Below, piece after piece: positions 5,000-35,062 of a stretch of 41,286 nt of DNA. The position numbers and the translations under genes are program-made. The stretch comes from a virus. Its lineage: Duplodnaviria > Heunggongvirae > Uroviricota > Caudoviricetes. The stretch lies in IMG/VR virus record IMGVR_UViG_2565956711_000007, one strand, 5' to 3'. The notes beneath the pieces are model-generated. The model did not search any database, was not told where the DNA came from, and saw only the letters and a list, made by a program, of their open reading frames with translations. Numbering within the stretch: the stretch's first letter is position 1; every line of letters begins with the position of its first letter.

Positions 5000-5373
5000 C
5001 ACTCCCCCTTACCGATGCCAGCGGCGCTAAGCTTGGTATTCACATCACCTTCAAAAATAGGCAGTACACCAATTGCAGCGGCCCAGTTTTTAGCTAACTC
5101 AGGGTCAGATGTCTCGTCGGTGTAGTCTGATGCCCGCCACCCAATCAGTCGTTTCTGACCAGGAATGTCAGAGTTTCGCTTCTCCGTTGCTTGCTCTAGA
5201 GCATTAAGAAGTGTACGTATTTCATGCTGCTGAGTAGAGATGCTTGAGTCTTTGGCTTCCAGCTCATCAAGCAGCGCCAGCACATCCCGAGTGGGGACCA
5301 TAAAGTTCGGCATGAAGTTATCTTTTGCCTTTTCTGCTGTTAGGCGCAGCGCCTGTTTGTCGATGTTTCTCAT
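4999..5373 (-). CDS. Hypothetical protein
   Basis: 124 aa; AGGAGG 7 nt upstream of ATG 5373; stop overlaps next start. Confidence 0.5.
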   Translation of the reverse strand: MRNIDKQALRLTAEKAKDNFMPNFMVPTRDVLALLDELEAKDSSISTQQHEIRTLLNALEQATEKRNSDIPGQKRLIGWRASDYTDETSDPELAKNWAAAIGVLPIFEGDVNTKLSAAGIGKGE

Positions 5374-6107
5374 TGGGCGGCCTCCTGGCGGTCTATGCGT
5401 TCAATTTCAGCCAGAATAAGTGCGCCAGCTTTCACCAGGTCACGGCGTGGATTTGTCGGCTTCCACCATTCTGGTGTCCACGGCCAGCCAAATGGAATGC
5501 GGTTAAATGGATGGATGGCATTCAGTACGTAGCATGAGGATGCCCACAGTAACTGCGATTTGCTGTACTGGTCATCATGCTCAGGCGTCCATCCCTCAAC
5601 TGATTGATGGCGTTGACGCTCTGCAATTACTGACTGAACGGCATTGGATAGCGATTTCACACCCTGCGCACGCACTTCAGCCAGGAAAGCATCGGTGGCT
5701 GGGGTTTCTGGAATGGCGTCTGGAATAACCTCTGAGTAGACGCGTTCCATTGCCGACTCCCATCCGTAGTAACAAGCCGAATAGCCGTCGCGCTGGTAGC
5801 CGTGGTCTTCAACTCCACATCCCATGCCCTGGTCATGGTATTCAGGCTGATTGTCGGGATTAATGCAGTATTCAATGACCGACTTCATCCCCGCATTCTC
5901 CGCTGCCAGCGCAGTGCACTTGGCCTCAAGGTTATCAATCGTGATTCCAGCAGAACGACACTCCCGCAACGCCGTTTCCAGTTTTGATTCAAGTTCACCG
6001 AACTTACGGACAAGGTATTCAGCGTTTGTTTCGTTAACCTTTAAATCTCGTGGGATGCATTTACCTTTCAGAAAACCATCCATCTCAATTAGTGACATTT
6101 GTTTCAT
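5370..6107 (-). CDS. Hypothetical protein
   Basis: 245 aa ORF in the operon, ATGA-type overlap with upstream gene. Confidence 0.5.
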
Positions 6108-7548: not shown

Positions 7549-8256
7549 TTATGCCGCCTGTTTTAGCTCGTTAACTCTGATGTTCATTACCTGAACGCAT
7601 TTAGCCTGCGCATCCTCATTGCCAGCCATTAATTGCCAGTCATGCTGATAACGCTCGATGAGTTTTTTCTTGTCAGTTTCTGTTGATGCATAATCGCTGA
7701 AGTCTTTCAGGATTTGTTCGCAGTCAACCGATGGAGATGTCTGGTTGGTATTTTCTGGTGATGGTTTGTTATCTGATGCTGGGATTGCCCATCCCGGCAG
7801 CGATGGAGGGAGCCAGTAAAATCCTGTTCCATCCTTCAGTTTTGCCCTGTGCCACCCCTGTTTTTTATCAAGAGATGTTTGTGCGAAACCTTCCTCAAGG
7901 TTATACAGATACCGACCGATTCCCCACTGTACGGCAGCGCGCTTCATTGCACCGGAACGACCACCTTTGACGGCTTCTACCTGCGTGTTTTCAGCAGCAT
8001 CCCATTTGGTTACCCATTCGGAATCAATCCTGATTGATATGCCGCATTCAACGCCGCCGTTGTTAGGAATATCGCGGTATTCATTGCGCCATCCTGCTTT
8101 GCCACAAACATCGTCCAGGCGTTTCATGATTGCCCGGTTCGTGACATAAGCCAGCACCATAGCCCACACTTTGCCATCGCGTGTTTTACCGCTTTGCTGT
8201 ATTCGCCATTCGATATCTTCAGGGCTGAATGGCTCATCGAATTTATTCAAATCCAT
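7549..8256 (-). CDS. Rad52-family single-strand annealing recombinase (Sak/Erf-like functional slot)
   Basis: 235 aa; motif GKVWAMVLAYVTNRAIMKRLDDVCG...GISIRIDSEWVTKWDAAEN...GGRSGAMKRAAVQWGIGRYLY; sits beside ssb in the bet/erf position. Confidence 0.7.
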   Translation of the reverse strand: MDLNKFDEPFSPEDIEWRIQQSGKTRDGKVWAMVLAYVTNRAIMKRLDDVCGKAGWRNEYRDIPNNGGVECGISIRIDSEWVTKWDAAENTQVEAVKGGRSGAMKRAAVQWGIGRYLYNLEEGFAQTSLDKKQGWHRAKLKDGTGFYWLPPSLPGWAIPASDNKPSPENTNQTSPSVDCEQILKDFSDYASTETDKKKLIERYQHDWQLMAGNEDAQAKCVQVMNIRVNELKQAA

Positions 8257-8435: not shown

Positions 8436-8514
8436 GAATATCTCCTTCGTTACCGATTAATTCTTTCATCTGACGAATGAATTCTTCGTCTGACCAGTTA
8501 TCTGTAAAACTCAT
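8356..8514 (-). CDS. Hypothetical small acidic protein (52 aa), translationally coupled to kil-like gene
   Basis: ATG 8514 overlaps kil-like stop (ATGA); MSFTDNWSDEEFIRQMKELIGNEGDIHVTCNHSEGEQVTEAHVHAKSSLVST. Confidence 0.3.
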   Translation of the reverse strand: MSFTDNWSDEEFIRQMKELIGNEGDIHVTCNHSEGEQVTEAHVHAKSSLVST

Positions 8515-8663
8515 TTCCTGCGATACCACGGAAGGTTGATAGCTGATTTCATTGCTTTATTTGCTTCAAGCCACATTTTGGAATCACCAATAAATCTGGC
8601 TATTACTGCTTTGTTTTGTGCAGCACGAAGCATCTGGTGATTGATGGCTATTTCATTGCGCAT
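8511..8663 (-). CDS. kil: Kil-like small protein (putative host cell-division inhibitor)
   Basis: 50 aa MRNEIAINHQMLRAAQNKAVIARFIGDSKMWLEANKAMKSAINLPWYRRK; directly downstream of cIII as in lambda; FIGD.KMW motif recalled from lambda Kil (memory, uncertain). Confidence 0.45.
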   Translation of the reverse strand: MRNEIAINHQMLRAAQNKAVIARFIGDSKMWLEANKAMKSAINLPWYRRK

Positions 8664-8779
8664 AATAAGACCTCAACTCTTTTCCATCCGTCACGTAATT
8701 TACGGGTGATTCGTTCAAGTAAAGATTCATTTAGTTGGAAGGCACCCATGCGAGCGCCTCCCGCGATTGCGTAAATCAT
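8648..8779 (-). CDS. cIII: CIII-like protease (FtsH) inhibitor, short form
   Basis: 43 aa MIYAIAGGARMGAFQLNESLLERITRKLRDGWKRVEVLLCAMK; core ESLLERITRKLRDGWKR matches recalled lambda CIII helix; AAGGA upstream. Confidence 0.7.
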   Translation of the reverse strand: MIYAIAGGARMGAFQLNESLLERITRKLRDGWKRVEVLLCAMK

Positions 8780-8803
8780 GGGTGGTTCCTTATGTTGGTT
8801 TTA

Positions 8804-9772
8804 TTAGTAGGTTATTTTTGTTGCGAATACTTCGCCTTTTACGATGGCTGTTATGATATTTTTAGCAACATCTTCTGATGCGCCAACCTTGATAAGGTCA
8901 GCAAGTATTTTGTTATTTACTTCTTTCCGGTGAGCTTTATCCTTTGCTCTACGCTCTTCTTCTTCCTTGATTCTTTTTTCTTCTGCTATTCTGGCTTGCT
9001 CTTTTGCTTCAGCCTCGCGCCGGATTCGTTCAGCCTCCTCCTGTGCTTTTCTGCGTTCTGCTTCAATTGCTGCCTGCTTTTCTCTTTCAGCTCGTTCTGC
9101 TGCCTCTTTTGCTTCGCGCTGTGCTCGTTGCTCGGCTTCAATGCGTTCACGCTCTGCACGTTCCGCTGCGGCCTTAGCTTCTGCTTCTCGCCTTGCTGCT
9201 GCTTCAATTTCGGCTTTTGCCTTTGCTTCGGCTTCAGCTCTGGCTTTCTCTTCAGCTTCTCTTTTTAAGCGTTCTTCATGCTCTCGCTTTTCCTGCTCCG
9301 CTTTGAGTCTTGCCTCTTCTCTTTGGCGGTCAAATTCGCGATCCATCAAAATCGCTATTTCATGGTCAGACTCAATTTGCTTTGCGAGAGCTTCAGCTGC
9401 TGACTTAGCTTCTTCTTCGGCTTTAATCCGTGCCTGTTCCTCCTCATAATCAGTAAGAGGCTGGCGCGCCTTGGCTTTCAGTTCATCAAGGCGATCACGC
9501 ACTGTCTTGCGGTTAGCATCAATTAGCTTTGGAATTTCCTTCAGTTCAGCAACAAGGTCTTTGCCAAGACCATCGAGATATGTTTTCGTCTGCGCAACTT
9601 TATACGCCAGAGAAGCGATCTCCTTTCTGCCCTTTGCCGTTGTGATATCAGGCACAAAGGACATAACTTCACGTTCAACCTTTTGGAGAATTTCTTCAAT
9701 CTGGTCGGCAGACTGAAATACAGTCATTGCATTTGCTTTTTCAATAACAACTAAATCTGTTACTTCACTCAT
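8804..9772 (-). CDS. Hypothetical protein with long E/R/K/A-rich charged helix (single-alpha-helix or coiled-coil like)
   Basis: 322 aa from ATG 9772 (GGAGG 4 nt upstream); about 150-residue low-complexity EAERAEREKQAA-type segment between structured N- and C-terminal parts. Confidence 0.65.
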   Translation of the reverse strand: MSEVTDLVVIEKANAMTVFQSADQIEEILQKVEREVMSFVPDITTAKGRKEIASLAYKVAQTKTYLDGLGKDLVAELKEIPKLIDANRKTVRDRLDELKAKARQPLTDYEEEQARIKAEEEAKSAAEALAKQIESDHEIAILMDREFDRQREEARLKAEQEKREHEERLKREAEEKARAEAEAKAKAEIEAAARREAEAKAAAERAERERIEAEQRAQREAKEAAERAEREKQAAIEAERRKAQEEAERIRREAEAKEQARIAEEKRIKEEEERRAKDKAHRKEVNNKILADLIKVGASEDVAKNIITAIVKGEVFATKITY

Positions 9773-9784
9773 ATATCCTCCATC

Positions 9785-9811
9785 AAAAAAAATTGCCCTC
9801 ACACTGGAGGG
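9785..9811 (-). terminator. Rho-independent terminator (tL1-like) on leftward operon
   Basis: Stem GCCCTC / GAGGGC, 6-nt loop, followed by 7-U run on minus strand; sits just upstream of the SD of the following gene. Confidence 0.65.
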
Positions 9812-9916
9812 CAAAGAAGATTTCCAATAATCAGAACAAGTCGGCTCCTGTTTAGTTACGAGCGACATTGCTCCGTGTATTCACTCGTTGGAATGAATAC
9901 ACGGTGCTTATTCATA

Positions 9917-10387
9917 CTAATAAAACACCCAATTTTCTGTTTCTTTGTTGTGTCCAAAGTTATATTCAATATCTGGTGTTGATGTATCAATATTCTTCAT
10001 CCCATCAACAAGAGTTGATACAACAGCCAAATCTTGTTTGATTCTCATCAAATGGTATTTCTTCCGGCGCAATAAACTTTCAATGGCAAGTTTCTTCGTC
10101 GGGAACGCAAAAGATCTTTCTGCATTTTTTGCTACTTTCTTAATTGCATATCTATTTCTCCTTTGTTTCCATTCCTGTAACCACTGATTTGGTGCTGGTT
10201 TAAAATTAACAATCCAATGCGCAGGAACCAACCATGCATAATGCTCTGTCTGATGAAAAGCTATATATTGAAGTGCGAATATTTTGATTCCATCTTCTTC
10301 AACTGTCGCTTGGAATCTCCAGAAAACAGGCATTCCATCATGTTCAGTTTCTGATTCAGGAAAAGGTACGCTCCATGATTTTGTCAT
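9917..10387 (-). CDS. Hypothetical protein (156 aa), AT-rich, Trp-rich
   Basis: Intact ORF immediately following the upstream stop; visibly lower GC than flanks. Confidence 0.55.
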   Translation of the reverse strand: MTKSWSVPFPESETEHDGMPVFWRFQATVEEDGIKIFALQYIAFHQTEHYAWLVPAHWIVNFKPAPNQWLQEWKQRRNRYAIKKVAKNAERSFAFPTKKLAIESLLRRKKYHLMRIKQDLAVVSTLVDGMKNIDTSTPDIEYNFGHNKETENWVFY

Positions 10388-10390
10388 ATA

Positions 10391-10642
10391 TTACTCATCT
10401 CCAATGGCTTTGCTGATTGCTGACAGTGCTTTCGATACTTCATCAGGATAATGGTCATCCCAGTTTTGCTTGTATGCCTTGTTTAGCATCGCTTGCAGAG
10501 CTTCGAGCAAATCAGGAGCTGCCTCCATCAATCTCACATCACCTCGATGGATGGTTGTATCGTCAAACGTGAAATAAACCCCATCATCGTTAAATCCAGC
10601 GCCAACAACATTCCATGGCCTTTTCATTCTTCCTACTGTCAT
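10391..10642 (-). CDS. Hypothetical protein (83 aa)
   Basis: GAGGTGA 4 nt upstream of ATG 10642. Confidence 0.5.
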   Translation of the reverse strand: MTVGRMKRPWNVVGAGFNDDGVYFTFDDTTIHRGDVRLMEAAPDLLEALQAMLNKAYKQNWDDHYPDEVSKALSAISKAIGDE

Positions 10643-10674
10643 TATTCACCTCTGTTGTTTATGCCAAAGCAAAT

Positions 10675-10917
10675 TTAACCATCAACAAACTCTTCTGGTA
10701 ATTTATCAACCAGTTGATGACTTATTATCAGCCATTTGCCATCCTTCGTTTCGTATGCATATTTCTGGTCTTTTATCATCATGTGTTCGGCTACTGCCCT
10801 AACTGCCTGATCGGTGACATCTTCTCTCTTTCCTACCCACATTCCTTTTTCAGTGTTTAATGTTCCTTGAAAAATACGACCACTTAATGGGCTTGCGCCC
10901 ATAGTTTTTACTCTCAT
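10675..10917 (-). CDS. Hypothetical protein (80 aa)
   Basis: GAGG 8 nt upstream of ATG 10917. Confidence 0.5.
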   Translation of the reverse strand: MRVKTMGASPLSGRIFQGTLNTEKGMWVGKREDVTDQAVRAVAEHMMIKDQKYAYETKDGKWLIISHQLVDKLPEEFVDG

Positions 10918-10981
10918 GTATCAGTCCTCAAATAAGTGGTTTGCTGCCAAAACAATGAACCATCCGGAAATTCCAGATAGT

Positions 10982-11206
10982 TCATAATTCACTCTTCAAT
11001 ACTTCCAGCTTACTAATCGCCGAAAGATATCCGCGCTGATAGGGCATCATCATTCCTTCGAGCTTGCCACTTCTTAACTCCTCCCTGAGCAATTGTATTG
11101 CTTGATCAATAACCTCTGCCTTAGCGTCCTTTATGGCTTGCTTTCGGGGCTTTGCTTTCTGCTTTGGCAGATTTCTCAAGCATGATGGAATGTATGTCTG
11201 ATTCAT
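10982..11206 (-). CDS. Hypothetical protein (74 aa), basic N-terminus
   Basis: ATG 11206 with GAGG 6 nt upstream, directly after N stop. Confidence 0.5.
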   Translation of the reverse strand: MNQTYIPSCLRNLPKQKAKPRKQAIKDAKAEVIDQAIQLLREELRSGKLEGMMMPYQRGYLSAISKLEVLKSEL

Positions 11207-11209
11207 CAC

Positions 11210-11593
11210 TTACCTCGCCGTCAGTTGTTTTGATTTCCGGTAGCCTGCCGCGTAAATGGCTACGTTTGGAAGACATACACCAGTTTCTGGTTGCTTATGT
11301 CCAAACTCATTCGCGTACACAATGGCCGCTCGCTCCAGATTGCGTCTGTATTCTTTCTGTTGCCAGATCACGTCCTGTGCCATGAACTTAATTGGCTTAG
11401 CGTCTTCTATGCGCTCAGGCGTTTCGTGAGTACCTTTAGCCTGAATCTGCGCTCTGCTTAGAGTAGGGCGGTGTAATACTTCTGAACTTATTGCTTCTTC
11501 GCGGGCCAGTACGCCGTTAGCTAATGCCTTTGCCTTTAAACGCTCACGACGACGAGAACGTGAATTGCCTTTGAACTGAGTTCTGCGTGTCAT
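11210..11593 (-). CDS. N: Antitermination protein N (P22/phi21-like type)
   Basis: 127 aa; N-terminal arginine-rich motif SRSRRRERLKAKA; AGGAGG 5 nt upstream; preceded by P22-type nutL boxB. Confidence 0.8.
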   Translation of the reverse strand: MTRRTQFKGNSRSRRRERLKAKALANGVLAREEAISSEVLHRPTLSRAQIQAKGTHETPERIEDAKPIKFMAQDVIWQQKEYRRNLERAAIVYANEFGHKQPETGVCLPNVAIYAAGYRKSKQLTAR

Positions 11594-11854
11594 ATAGACC
11601 TCCTGATGAACTTTGGTGGTGTGGTGGCTGGTAGTCTAGCTCCAGCTTGTTGAGTCTCATTCGGAGGGGTATAACCGGCACCCCAGTGATTTTTCCATGC
11701 GACAACGTGCGCGTTATGGCGGCCTTATCGCCCGCGGCTCCCCATCTCGTCCACGCTATTGCTAGCGTTGGGAGCGCTTCACCGCTCAACAGTAGGTAAG
11801 CACTTGCCAGTGACTAGCTGGCTTCACCACACCCCAAAGTTCACTTTGGTTATT

Positions 11855-11869
11855 GCGCTTTGTCAGCGC
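11855..11869 (-). promoter_or_regulatory. nutL boxB hairpin (P22 type)
   Basis: Minus-strand GCGCTGACAAAGCGC, identical to the P22 nutL boxB sequence as I recall it; no canonical boxA found upstream. Confidence 0.7.
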
Positions 11870-11937
11870 CGTAGATTCATATTCGAATCGTTGTATATTC
11901 ACCGCCCTGGTGAGTAATGCGTCCTGCTGATGGCTTA

Positions 11938-12023
11938 AAGATAACTTAGGTTATAGGTGTGGTCAATAACCTAATTTATATTTTATGGTAAATAAGTTAT
12001 AAGTGATGGATAACAAAGGTATT
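11938..12023 (-). promoter_or_regulatory. pL promoter with OL operators
   Basis: Minus strand -35 TTGACC (11961-11966), 17-nt spacer, -10 TATCTT (11938-11943); operator-like ATAAC-N4-GTTAT at 11941-11954, degenerate copies at 11966-11979 and 12010-12023. Confidence 0.55.
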
Positions 12024-12152
12024 TTATTTTTGTAAATGTTGCTGATTGATTGGTGTTTGAGGGCTTGCGTGCGGGGTGAAGGTGTTACCTTTGGCTTGAT
12101 GCTTGTCTATGATGAGGATGGTTGATTGGGTGGTGAACGGCAGGAAAAGAAA

Positions 12153-12178
12153 ACCCGGCGCTGAGGCCGGGTGTTTTT
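12153..12178. terminator. Bidirectional rho-independent terminator ending the cI operon
   Basis: Stem ACCCGGC / GCCGGGT with 6-nt loop, T-runs on both sides; overlaps stop codon of the 98-aa ORF. Confidence 0.7.
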
Positions 12179-12473
12179 AGTCTTTTCTTTTGCTTAGCAT
12201 TTCGTCGATTTCTAAGTCAATACGATATTGATCTATTGCTTTTCTCTCGTTTGGGGTTGGTATTTTATACTGTTCAATTAGATCTGTTGTGTATTTTATT
12301 TCATCTAATGTTATTTTTATATCAGAGAGAATCTCTTTTATATCAATTATATGCTCTTCTTCTTTTGCGCGATTAGAGCTATGTTCAATCATTTGAGATA
12401 GCTTTTTGCTAATGCTTAGCAAAACAAAAAGAATGATGACCAAAACAACAACAAAAACTATCAGAAATTCCAT
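12177..12473 (-). CDS. Hypothetical small membrane protein in the rexAB slot, co-transcribed with cI
   Basis: 98 aa; N-terminal TM helix EFLIVFVVVLVIILFVLLSI then charged helical tail; GGAGGG RBS; 40 nt downstream of cI on same strand; strikingly AT-rich. Confidence 0.7.
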   Translation of the reverse strand: MEFLIVFVVVLVIILFVLLSISKKLSQMIEHSSNRAKEEEHIIDIKEILSDIKITLDEIKYTTDLIEQYKIPTPNERKAIDQYRIDLEIDEMLSKRKD

Positions 12474-12513
12474 TATCCCTCCGCACTTCCGTAAGTCTTC
12501 TTCTGATTATCGG

Positions 12514-13221
12514 TTACCAACTATGAGACGACCAGAATACTCTGCCAATAATCCTTACGGTTTCATGAAATTCATCTCTATCCATTACTTCATCCGGGTA
12601 CTCTTCGCGATTTATTGATCTGATTATCACCGATGTAGGGGTGGCGATTAATGTTTTTACTCGTAACAAATCAGACTGGCAAATAGCGTAGGTTTTACCA
12701 TCTCTGATTGTGGTATCTTGCGTGTTAACACCAACAACATCGCCATCGTGAAGGGTTGGTTCCATGCTTTGCCCTACAACCCTAACTAGCTTGGCTGATC
12801 TTTCAGATACTCCCATCTTTTTCAGATAGTGCTTTCTGAAAACCAAAGAGAACTCCGATGATTCCTCTAGCTCGCAGCTACCGCTTCCAGCTGAAAGCGA
12901 AACGTTAAGAAGAGGCAACGCAACAAACTCGTCATCGTTTCTTTTAATGTCTTCCCATACCACAGCTTTTAAAGATGACTCACGGACATTGGATGGTTCT
13001 TCATGTGCACCATCCCTCATTTCACCAATACCAGAACTAAGCCATTCAGGACGCACTTTTAAAGCATTGGCTAATTCAACCATCTTGCGAGATCCGTTTG
13101 TTTTACCGGACGACATCTTCTGTATGGCTGGCTGAGATATTCCAACCATGTCAGCAAGCTGTGATTGTGATACCCCTGCTGAGCTCATGGCTGCATTTAG
13201 TCTTTCTGCGAATGTTTTCAT
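12514..13221 (-). CDS. cI: CI-type prophage repressor (HTH plus S24 LexA-like autopeptidase domain)
   Basis: 235 aa from ATG 13221 (likely leaderless); HTH QSQLADMVGISQPAIQKM; S24 motif GQSMEPTLHDGDVVGVN; not the lambda cI sequence. Confidence 0.88.
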   Translation of the reverse strand: MKTFAERLNAAMSSAGVSQSQLADMVGISQPAIQKMSSGKTNGSRKMVELANALKVRPEWLSSGIGEMRDGAHEEPSNVRESSLKAVVWEDIKRNDDEFVALPLLNVSLSAGSGSCELEESSEFSLVFRKHYLKKMGVSERSAKLVRVVGQSMEPTLHDGDVVGVNTQDTTIRDGKTYAICQSDLLRVKTLIATPTSVIIRSINREEYPDEVMDRDEFHETVRIIGRVFWSSHSW

Positions 13222-13311
13222 ACCCACAAATCTATAACTACGGTTATCCAAAGTAAAATAACAAAGGTTATTGCTATTTTTTATAACTTGAGTTATCTTT
13301 GGTTATAACTA
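13222..13311. promoter_or_regulatory. OR region: divergent pRM and pR with three operators
   Basis: ATAAC-N4-GTTAT at 13234-13247, 13258-13271, 13283-13296; pR -35 TTGCTA (13271-13276) and -10 TATCTT (13294-13299); pRM -10 TAGATT 7 nt before the cI ATG. Confidence 0.65.
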
Positions 13312-13332
13312 ATGACCACAAGAGGTATGCTC

Positions 13333-13557
13333 ATGAATTTAGTAATTCAACGAGCCTTGAAAATTGTCGGTAGCCAAAAGCGCCTTGCCGACAAGTGTGG
13401 TGTAACGCAGCCAGCAGTACACAAATGGCTGAAAGGCGGGTTGGTCTCTCCAGAGAAAGTTACCGCCATCGTTAACGCCACTGGAGGGCAGATCAAGGCT
13501 TACGAAATTCGCCCCGATTTGCCACACCTGTTTCCAAAACCGAATCAGGCAGCATAA
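13333..13557 (+). CDS. cro: Cro-like repressor (HTH)
   Basis: 74 aa from ATG 13333 with GAGG 8 nt upstream; divergent from cI across the operators. Confidence 0.75.
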   Translation: MNLVIQRALKIVGSQKRLADKCGVTQPAVHKWLKGGLVSPEKVTAIVNATGGQIKAYEIRPDLPHLFPKPNQAA

Positions 13558-33757: not shown

Positions 33758-35062
33758 ATGGTTGTCGAACCTATTGATTATTCTGCGTCCACTGGTCGCG
33801 CACTGCTTCAAGGGCTTACTGCTGGCCGGGCAATTCAGGGGATGCGTCAAACTTCTCAGGAGATGGATGCGGCAGCACAGCAACGAGAGCGCCAGCAAGC
33901 CGCATATACTGCGTTGCAGAATGCCAGGCCGGAGGATTTACCAGCGCTGCGCATGCAGTATCCAGAGTTTGCAGATGTTATTCAGAAAGAAATCGGCATT
34001 CAGGATGCTGAACATGCAGCGTTCGTTAATAAGGCGCTCAATAACCTCTCGGTGGCCTATGCATCAGGTAACCCGCAGATGATGCAGCAAGCCATTCATT
34101 CCGGCGCCCCGGCATTAGCTTCGATGAATGTTCCAGCTGATGAAGCTTGGCAGCTCTATCAGAGCGATCCGCAGCAGTTCGGCTCCCTGTTGAAAGCGTC
34201 AATGTACGCAACGATGCCTATTGAGAAGCAGGTAGATGCGCAGCAGAAAGAAGCTGAACTTAAGGAGGACGCCCGCCAGGCTGACATGCAGAACGCCACC
34301 ACGCGACAGGGGCAGCAGCTCTCATATGGCGCTCAGATGGCTCGTCTGAATCACGATAAATACGTATACAGGCAGTCACAGGCGGCGCTTAAAAAATATG
34401 GCGACGTTCAGGACATGGACACCCTGGCGTTAAACTCTCAAATCGCCTCTACGGGAGTTGACCCTTTAACCGGCAAGCCAGCAACCGGCGCGCGAATGGG
34501 GCAGGCCAGAAAGTGGCTTGAGGGTAATAACGGCTATAACGAAGCGCTAATCACTGGCGAAAGGGGGATCGAGAAGATTGATTCCGTACTGGGTAAGCCA
34601 GAATTAGAAGGCATTGGCAGGTATGCGGGAAGGATGCCTGATGCAACCACCTCAGAAGAGGGCCTGTCGAACAGGAACGCCATTGAAGAGCTTAAGTCTG
34701 GCGCTTTCGTTCAGAACGTTCAGATGCTCAGAGGCTTGGGAGCACTGTCGAACGCAGAAGGCAGCAAGCTCGAAAACCTGATCGCCCGCCTCGATGTTAC
34801 ACAACCAGCTGACGTGGTGAAAAAGCAGCTTGGAGAAATTCGCAGCCAATATTCTGTACTGCAAAAGGTGGCAGGCCGTGAAGCTGAGTCCATGGGCTAC
34901 AGCTCGCAGGGTTACGATACCTATGTGTCAGAAAGGCAAGCGCAGAAGGATCAACCGCAGGCAGGCGCAGCAGGGCAGTCAACTCGTGAAGGCATGACAG
35001 CCACAAATCCAAAAACGGGGCAGCAAATCATTTATAGGAATGGGAAATGGCAACCGATGTAG
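33758..35062 (+). CDS. Ejection protein, gp20 position
   Basis: 434 aa from ATG 33758 (GAGGTG 5 nt upstream); by position. Confidence 0.65.
   Translation: MVVEPIDYSASTGRALLQGLTAGRAIQGMRQTSQEMDAAAQQRERQQAAYTALQNARPEDLPALRMQYPEFADVIQKEIGIQDAEHAAFVNKALNNLSVAYASGNPQMMQQAIHSGAPALASMNVPADEAWQLYQSDPQQFGSLLKASMYATMPIEKQVDAQQKEAELKEDARQADMQNATTRQGQQLSYGAQMARLNHDKYVYRQSQAALKKYGDVQDMDTLALNSQIASTGVDPLTGKPATGARMGQARKWLEGNNGYNEALITGERGIEKIDSVLGKPELEGIGRYAGRMPDATTSEEGLSNRNAIEELKSGAFVQNVQMLRGLGALSNAEGSKLENLIARLDVTQPADVVKKQLGEIRSQYSVLQKVAGREAESMGYSSQGYDTYVSERQAQKDQPQAGAAGQSTREGMTATNPKTGQQIIYRNGKWQPM

Follow-up and report, generated by a model that had tools for sequence, protein, structure and literature searches.

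The window analysed here is a 41,286-nt stretch of DNA (IMG/VR record IMGVR_UViG_2565956711_000007) from a mosaic lambdoid Escherichia coli phage, which carries, directly downstream of the antiterminator gene N in the leftward early (pL) operon, four minus-strand open reading frames (ORFs) of 74, 80, 83 and 156 aa, designated A, B, C and D. A–D are real and conserved genes, belonging to already catalogued families and functionally uncharacterised, and it is very probable that they are cargo of a variable slot of the pL operon that extends from N to a conserved hairpin terminator. A first-pass annotation of this window had described four ORFs of these lengths lying head to tail after N, and all four are found where it placed them, on the minus strand. 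N, the ORFs and the elements within and behind the block are as follows.

Positions 11210–11593, minus strand: antiterminator N, 127 aa, of the 933W/H-19B type (Pfam N_peptide, E = 2.1e-15; phrog_271, E = 3e-39)
Positions 10982–11206, minus strand: ORF A (ATG at 11206), 74 aa, basic, isoelectric point (pI) 9.7 (phrog_5305, E = 4.6e-38; no Pfam family)
Positions 10955–10985, minus strand: 14-bp hairpin (G-U pairs counted) over the stop codon of A, followed by UGUUUUGG
Positions 10675–10917, minus strand: ORF B, 80 aa, DUF7446 (Pfam PF24233, E = 5.4e-29; phrog_1578, E = 2e-39)
Positions 10391–10642, minus strand: ORF C, 83 aa, acidic, pI 4.8 (phrog_1273, E = 4.4e-17; PF27050, Phage_P22_Y8K6)
Positions 10493–10530, minus strand: recombination joint in C, the codons for LMEAAPDLLEALQ, placed by DNA breakpoints
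Positions 10427–10492, minus strand: hypervariable cassette in C, codons 51–72, placed by homologue comparison
Positions 9917–10387, minus strand: ORF D, 156 aa, basic, pI 9.25, AT-rich (phrog_1636, E = 8.6e-112, covering positions 1–156 of 156)
Positions 9785–9814, minus strand: intrinsic terminator, with the stem at 9793–9814 and eight T at 9785–9792

The slot between N and the terminator holds exchangeable cargo

The slot was surveyed in 80 IMG/VR loci whose N is at least 99% identical to that of the window (the window's own contig and 79 others), and the region from N to cIII or kil was catalogued in each. Between these N genes and a terminator with a GCCCTC..GAGGGC stem lie dozens of different gene sets. 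The commonest is D alone, 62 nt after N, which is the layout of phages 933W and HK97; other sets consist of ral alone, of A–B, of A with other genes, or of paralogues of the C family. Additional cargo includes a 62-aa Zn-ribbon protein, a 149-aa membrane protein and a 107-aa acidic protein (orf184), and in about 10 of the 80 loci the slot is filled by a 207-aa Nmad5 protein (PF18757, nucleotide modification associated domain 5, E = 1.1e-68; for example, positions 5156–5779 of locus L110). Within this set, the combination A-B-C-D occurs only in the window's own contig, and searches of 50,697 phage records and 5,426 E. coli genomes returned none that covers at least 80% of the A–D block. Any or all of A–D are missing from phages that share the downstream genes and have an N of at least 99% identity, which argues on comparative grounds that A–D are dispensable.

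In other phages, ral adjoins A, B, C or D, the gene orders being N-A-x-ral-D in phi367, 24-sieB-ral-B in SE1 and N-orf28-ral-C in Sf101. The slot thus combines variable content between conserved flanks with co-location of the counter-defence gene ral. Silas et al. (10.1101/2023.04.06.535777) define hotspots of this kind as accessory regions and screened 200 accessory genes. Conflict genes found in the slot region comprise ral, sieB/esc, orf184 and gene 17 of P22, the last annotated as "allows growth on Fels-2 lysogen". Among them, orf184 triggers the gop-beta-cII abortive-infection system (10.1101/2023.04.06.535777); it corresponds to the 107-aa acidic cargo family u70, a separate family of the same slot, and is none of A–D. 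As side observations, homologues of P22 gp17 (cargo family u34) lie just past the terminator in some same-N loci, and gp18 of the virulent phage N4 (positions 7668–7982 of locus L228) is annotated as similar to P22 gp17, itself the anti-Fels-2 exclusion function.

The slot is closed by a hairpin that fits an intrinsic (Rho-independent) terminator. Specifically, an 8-bp stem (TTGCCCTC/GAGGGCAA, five GC pairs) encloses a 6-nt loop and is followed by eight T, with a minimum free energy (MFE) of −18.1 kcal/mol and z = −2.5, in agreement with the strong terminator that the first-pass annotation had seen after the 156-aa ORF. It is the first strong intrinsic terminator on the minus strand downstream of nutL. 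In most same-N loci the GCCCTC..GAGGGC stem and its T-run follow the variable cargo irrespective of what that cargo is, and a putative terminator is annotated at the equivalent place in HK97. In many phages the hairpin recurs behind cargo that is unrelated, and it thus acts like a conserved boundary of the mosaic or an anchor for recombination. A near-identical hairpin is present in lambda at 33,931–33,952 (positions 1132–1153 of locus L084), between ral and ea10; one stem base differs, the lambda hairpin reading TTGCCCTCCAGTGTGAGGGCGA against ...GGGCAA in the window. This hairpin past ral makes the slot the counterpart of the lambda sieB-orf28-ral interval. The label "tL1-like" given to the terminator is apt insofar as it is the first intrinsic terminator after N here, but by sequence it matches the lambda hairpin downstream of ral, which we take to be part of the tL2 cluster and not tL1, although this assignment could not be confirmed in the papers searched.

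A–D are real genes under selection and belong to catalogued families

ORF A begins 3 nt past the stop codon of N and is preceded by GAGG; B follows A after a 64-nt spacer, with GAGGA upstream, and C follows B after 32 nt, with GAGGTG upstream. ORF D begins 3 nt past the stop codon of C, and its upstream GGAG/GAG is weaker than the Shine-Dalgarno sequences of the other three, so that the earlier description of decent Shine-Dalgarno sequences holds clearly for A, B and C and less well for D. The 3-nt distance and the weaker signal make translational coupling of C and D plausible. As had been noticed, D is also lower in GC than its neighbours, with 36.3% (29% at third codon positions) against 39.5–49%; the window as a whole has 47.7%, and D falls within the lowest 1.1% in GC of its 471-bp windows.

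Each of A–D matches a PHROG family, with E values from 4e-17 to 9e-112. Additionally, the proportions of non-synonymous (pN) and synonymous (pS) change, computed for A, B and D against diverged homologues, are 0–0.006 versus 0.07–0.09 for A, 0.10–0.16 versus 0.76–0.82 for B and 0.21–0.27 versus 0.77–0.90 for D. The PHROG matches, together with non-synonymous change far below synonymous change, argue that A–D are real genes and not chance ORFs.

The proteins resemble nothing of known function in the searches made. All four are hydrophilic (grand average of hydropathy −0.46 to −0.59), and neither an enzyme signature nor a membrane segment was found in them. PADLOC gave no significant match (best E 0.015), NCBIfam and local Pfam searches nothing informative for A, C and D, and PDB sequence and family-profile searches only noise (E > 0.04). 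Literature searches on L0079, DUF7446, HK97 gp45 and vb_24B_11c, and a broader anti-defence/lambdoid query, returned nothing on these genes. In line with the earlier remark that none of the four resembles the products of ral or sieB, BLASTP against Ral, SieB and Ea10 gave no match at E < 0.1; the best matches to the Ral proteins of lambda and P22 (64–66 aa, Cys-containing) had E values of 0.12–0.43 over 37–45 aa, and A–D show no likeness to lambda orf28 or P22 gp17. SieB-type genes have their own promoter, run on the strand opposite to N and encode membrane proteins of about 190 aa, whereas A–D are hydrophilic and lie on the N strand. Lambda SieB gave a sole tblastn match, inside ORF D (E 0.04), which was rejected because it is out of frame and interrupted by a stop codon. 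Taken together, the designation of A–D as unknown ORFs is right for function but not for sequence, as D has long stood in the annotated genomes of 933W, HK97 and H-19B, and B and C have Pfam families. The homology and structure searches that had been proposed matched catalogued families of no known function and, for the model of D, no PDB entry. The first-pass annotation was accurate and its interpretation reasonable, and the evidence supports describing A–D as catalogued "known unknowns" in a recognised accessory region.

ORF D represents a widespread family with a confidently predicted fold

ORF D is about 99% identical to L0079 of 933W, gp45 of HK97 and vb_24B_11c of phi24B, and H-19B contains the same ORF unannotated; many other Stx phages carry it too. 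Close relatives are confined to prophages of Enterobacterales. A profile search of 1.84 billion representatives retrieved 87 proteins, about 70 of which are relatives of 130–155 aa at 18–28% identity; the distant relatives all lack a Pfam model and belong to PHROGs whose function is unknown, and all 72 aligned relatives also match phrog_1636. A tblastn search with one distant relative hit a single cultured phage, and the only domain fusion seen among family members was a repeat-protein artefact.

The AlphaFold2 model of D, built from the deeper alignment, reached a predicted local distance difference test score (pLDDT) of 96 and a predicted template modelling score of 0.83; an earlier model from close homologues alone (pLDDT 62) was not used. 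The predicted fold consists of three long antiparallel strands (residues 19–30, 33–46 and 50–55), two short helices and a fourth strand (83–86), followed by a 33-residue helix (98–130) and an ordered C-terminal tail. No match to this model was found in the PDB. BFVD yielded 12 significant matches, none to a characterised protein; those with a name are from Erwinia, Achromobacter, Delftia, Rhizobium, Sinorhizobium and Tenacibaculum phages. Judged by this model, D is a structurally novel, widespread family carried by Shiga-toxin (Stx) phages.

The family is basic, with a median pI of 8.9 and K/R conserved at positions 24, 75, 76, 83, 84, 87, 92, 98, 108, 109 and 117, and only G33, T47, K87 and A101 are near-invariant. 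The four near-invariant residues do not form a catalytic set; these features together point to a binding protein instead of an enzyme, and the conserved Lys/Arg surface suggests that D binds nucleic acid or an acidic partner. The position of the gene varies. It follows N in E. coli phages, a homologue with 57–63% identity lies beside xis-int in Pectobacterium and Brenneria prophages, and in Salmonella phage NX263 and a Vibrio phage relatives open an early operon or stand second in it. Two further candidate relationships were rejected for lack of any match, one to N4 gp2 (the ssDNA-binding recruiter of N4 RNAPII) or other N4 early proteins and the other to P22 gp17.

ORF C carries a swappable cassette

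ORF C is about 97% nucleotide-identical to Sf101 gp34, and its family profile matches P22 orf78 at E = 2.4e-13. PF27050 is precomputed on all 120 listed homologues of C, including proteins 99% identical to it. The family plan consists of a conserved N-terminal module ending in AAPDLLEALQ, a hypervariable segment and a conserved C-terminal AAISKALGEE. Among the 70 homologues at least 85% identical to C over residues 1–50, residues 51–72 fall below 30% identity in 54, and 46 distinct middle segments of 16–36 aa are present. Conversely, the middle segment of the window's C is also joined to at least four unrelated N-terminal modules in other proteins, and one phage (L174) carries two C paralogues with different modules (L174a and L174b).

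The DNA similarity of C to the variants L174a and L175 (93–97%) ends at about nucleotide 151 of the gene, and that to L174b starts at about nucleotide 113. The codons for LMEAAPDLLEALQ are the sole stretch common to variants with unrelated 5' halves (L174b) or unrelated 3' parts (L174a and L175), and the two breakpoints thus mark this stretch of about 38 nt as a shared recombination joint. The same joint is also the only stretch of C with DNA similarity to P22 orf78. On the strength of these sequence comparisons, we read the cassette as a putative specificity determinant.

ORFs A and B are small conserved proteins separated by a hairpin

The family of A is narrow, with 41 homologues (E ≤ 0.001), all in Enterobacteriaceae, and 24 invariant columns in their alignment. 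None of the homologues has a Pfam match of its own; one 102-aa fragment is tagged PF24233, the family of B. ORF A was found behind at least two types of N. ORF B matches PF24233 with 100.3 bits (cut-off 24.1) over profile positions 2–70 of 70 and is uniformly conserved, with 73–100% identity over 48/49 other loci; two outliers reach 64% and 49%. At least five types of N precede it in different phages, and it often comes directly after ral.

The hairpin over the stop codon of A folds, in its 83-nt context, with an MFE of −22.4 kcal/mol (z = −2.9) and is followed by a weak U-tract. Within the operon, it could serve as a partial terminator or as a site for RNA processing of the RNase III type.

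Comparison with lambda, P22 and Stx phages

The claim that the N-proximal position holds ral and sieB in lambda is borne out, as the lambda interval from N to the same hairpin consists of sieB, orf28 and ral. This interval has the same position in the pL operon, is bounded by N and the near-identical hairpin, and its content is non-essential and variable between phages. The arrangement differs in that lambda has about 750 nt after N without a leftward ORF, whereas the ORFs of the window are packed from 3 nt past the N stop codon.

In P22, the interval from N to the terminator holds sieB/esc, ral, orf78, orf87 and gene 17. The P22 block is alike in its succession of an antiterminator, several small ORFs, a terminator (annotated after gene 17), cIII (c3) and kil. 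P22 orf78, which follows ral, is a true homologue of C and shares with it the AAPELLEAL joint and the AIGKALGKE tail. However, C alone has a P22 counterpart, and the sequence of the terminator hairpin differs.

Closest in layout are 933W, HK97, phi24B and H-19B, in which the D ORF directly follows the same N and precedes the same terminator. In these phages D lies 62 nt after N, whereas in the window A, B and C are inserted between the two genes.

The library of Silas et al. (10.1101/2023.04.06.535777) covers genes of the same genomic region. It includes Ral (orf87), orf184, UDP0047 (related to the slot membrane protein) and two genes of the Sf101 slot, namely UDP0123, which is the C homologue Sf101 gp34, and its neighbour UDP0057. 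Motif searches of the gene table and supplement of that study found no homologue of A, B or D.

The surrounding early region

IMG/VR contig IMGVR_UViG_2778261297_000006 matches the window at 100% identity. The early region of the window resembles those of HK97, N7 and IME10, and the ORF sizes of its late region look P22-like. The N of the window is 98–100% identical to the N of 933W and of the 80 IMG/VR loci, and the 109 nt around nutL (11822–11930) are 100% identical to 933W and phi24B. The features flanking N and the slot are as follows.

Positions 12514–13251, minus strand: cI-like repressor, followed by an AT-rich 98-aa ORF
Positions 12177–12473, minus strand: the 98-aa ORF (phrog_18389, function unknown), between the cI-like repressor and the bidirectional terminator
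Positions 12153–12172: bidirectional terminator, end of the cI transcript
Positions 11938–11966, minus strand: candidate pL promoter, TTGACC-17-TATCTT (consensus match only), between the bidirectional terminator and nutL
Positions 11855–11921, minus strand: nutL, an exact match to the 67-nt nutL annotated in 933W
Positions 8804–9772, minus strand: 322-aa coiled-coil protein (phrog_1376), the downstream flank of the slot, followed by cIII and kil
Positions 8675–8779, minus strand: cIII homologue

The 322-aa protein has a GGAGG ribosome-binding site and an ATG at 9772 directly after the T-run of the terminator, the listed ORF extending upstream to 9868. It contains a long Lys/Glu/Ala-rich coiled coil, is named "TolA" or "coiled-coil domain-containing" in RefSeq, and in related phages its gene alternates with an ea10/ssb-like gene at the same position. 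Beyond kil lie ORFs of 235 and 157 aa, where the closely matching prophage L001 annotates an annealing protein of the Rad52/Erf type and ssb. On the other side of the slot, the 98-aa ORF has the lowest GC of the region (29.6%) and a hydrophobic helix at the N-terminus of its product; it occupies the rexAB/stk position, the place of lysogeny-expressed genes. An Rfam scan of 8500–13500 found no RNA family. A tblastn search with lambda Ral gave no match in the window, and neither ral nor sieB was found there.

Expression and function of the slot cargo

We propose that A–D are independent, horizontally exchanged cargo of the pL-operon slot between N and the conserved hairpin terminator, which would be silent in the lysogen and, after infection or induction, would be transcribed from pL together with N. 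This expression is suggested by their location on the N strand, their tight packing after N and the lack of a detected promoter of their own, as a consensus scan of the coding strand, covering the block and the stretch just before it, revealed no sigma-70-like site. Much of the expression of A–D is probably N-independent, given the tight packing of the ORFs and the position of the first strong intrinsic terminator, which lies behind D. Against such N-independence, transcripts might meet Rho-dependent stops, and the hairpin at 10955–10985 might end part of them.

The products of A–D would be small proteins that bind factors of the host or of rival phages early on, in counter-defence or inter-phage conflict. 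This role is suggested by the company that they keep in the slot and by the features of the proteins, and we put the likelihood that A–D serve in conflict at even or slightly below. More specifically, D may neutralise a host defence or take over a host process by binding nucleic acid or an acidic host protein, and the cassette of C may set specificity toward polymorphic host or rival-phage targets; in this particular form the proposal is tentative and on the unlikely side. A and B are conserved small proteins that offer no further clue. As a whole, early pL-expressed cargo of the ral/sieB slot that encodes conflict-related binding proteins is the best explanation we have, with the balance standing about level.

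Several observations weigh against a role in conflict. A, B and D are under strong, uniform purifying selection, unlike the rapid diversification typical of many anti-defence proteins. The C homologue UDP0123, like UDP0057, is not named among the phenotype genes of Silas et al. (10.1101/2023.04.06.535777), and a follow-up paper, in which only orf123 was looked for, does not mention it. D is not tied to N and has xis-int or replication/recombination genes as neighbours elsewhere, and these neighbourhoods, in prophages and in virulent phages, fit a helper of DNA transactions equally well. Moreover, association between neighbours is a weak argument in mosaic phage regions.

It is conceivable, although we doubt it, that A–D assist the phage itself in early DNA transactions or in gene control, with D as a basic DNA/RNA-binding helper and A–C as minor regulators. 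The conserved K/R positions of the basic D family are consistent with such a role, as is the presence of D relatives near replication/recombination genes in temperate and virulent phages alike (in NX263 ahead of a DNA-binding protein and a beta-clamp-like gene, in Vibrio PvVp04 beside RecE and a replication initiator, and in Brenneria after YqaJ). The purifying selection on A, B and D and the lack of a reported phenotype for the C homologue in a defence-oriented screen point the same way. Yet A–D are dispensable by comparison of same-N phages, the characterised occupants of the slot are all conflict genes, and the hypervariable cassette of C is hard to explain for a housekeeping role. Neither does it seem likely that A–D, or at least the AT-rich D, are morons expressed in lysogeny to protect the lysogen by exclusion or defence, as sieB and rexAB do. 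D does combine a clearly foreign base composition (36.3% GC, lowest 1.1%) with a terminator directly behind it, both of which count as hallmarks of morons, and the slot holds sieB in lambda and P22. But sieB, unlike A–D, lies on the opposite strand with its own promoter, whereas A–D sit tightly spaced on the same strand inside the repressor-controlled pL operon, where the consensus scan gave no promoter-like site in or just upstream of the block. The proteins show no membrane segments and no significant PADLOC match, and members of the D family are common among virulent phages, where no lysogen needs protection.

The extreme mosaicism of the slot, the intragenic recombination joint in C and the narrow family of A would also be expected if some of A–D were selfish passengers of little or no function, hitch-hiking between recombination-prone boundaries. 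We consider this very unlikely, as A, B and D are under purifying selection over saturated synonymous divergence, and the D family, with its well-defined predicted fold, is kept down to 18–28% identity across very different phages.

Significance

The lambdoid pL operon is a textbook system and one of the best-studied phage operons, yet its slot behind N is filled here with uncharacterised genes. What is gained is a slot with defined conserved boundaries, D as a novel, widespread family by its predicted structure, and the cassette architecture of C; in practical terms this is a short list of candidates and no discovery in itself. D is the most interesting of them, being carried 62 nt after N by major Stx phages and HK97 and having a confidently predicted fold without a solved relative. 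If the proposed reading is true, the C cassette would offer, in compact form, a natural case of specificity swapping, and the mechanism of either D or C would be new. Should A–D counter host defences or rival prophages, they would influence the range of E. coli strains open to infection and conversion by Stx phages.

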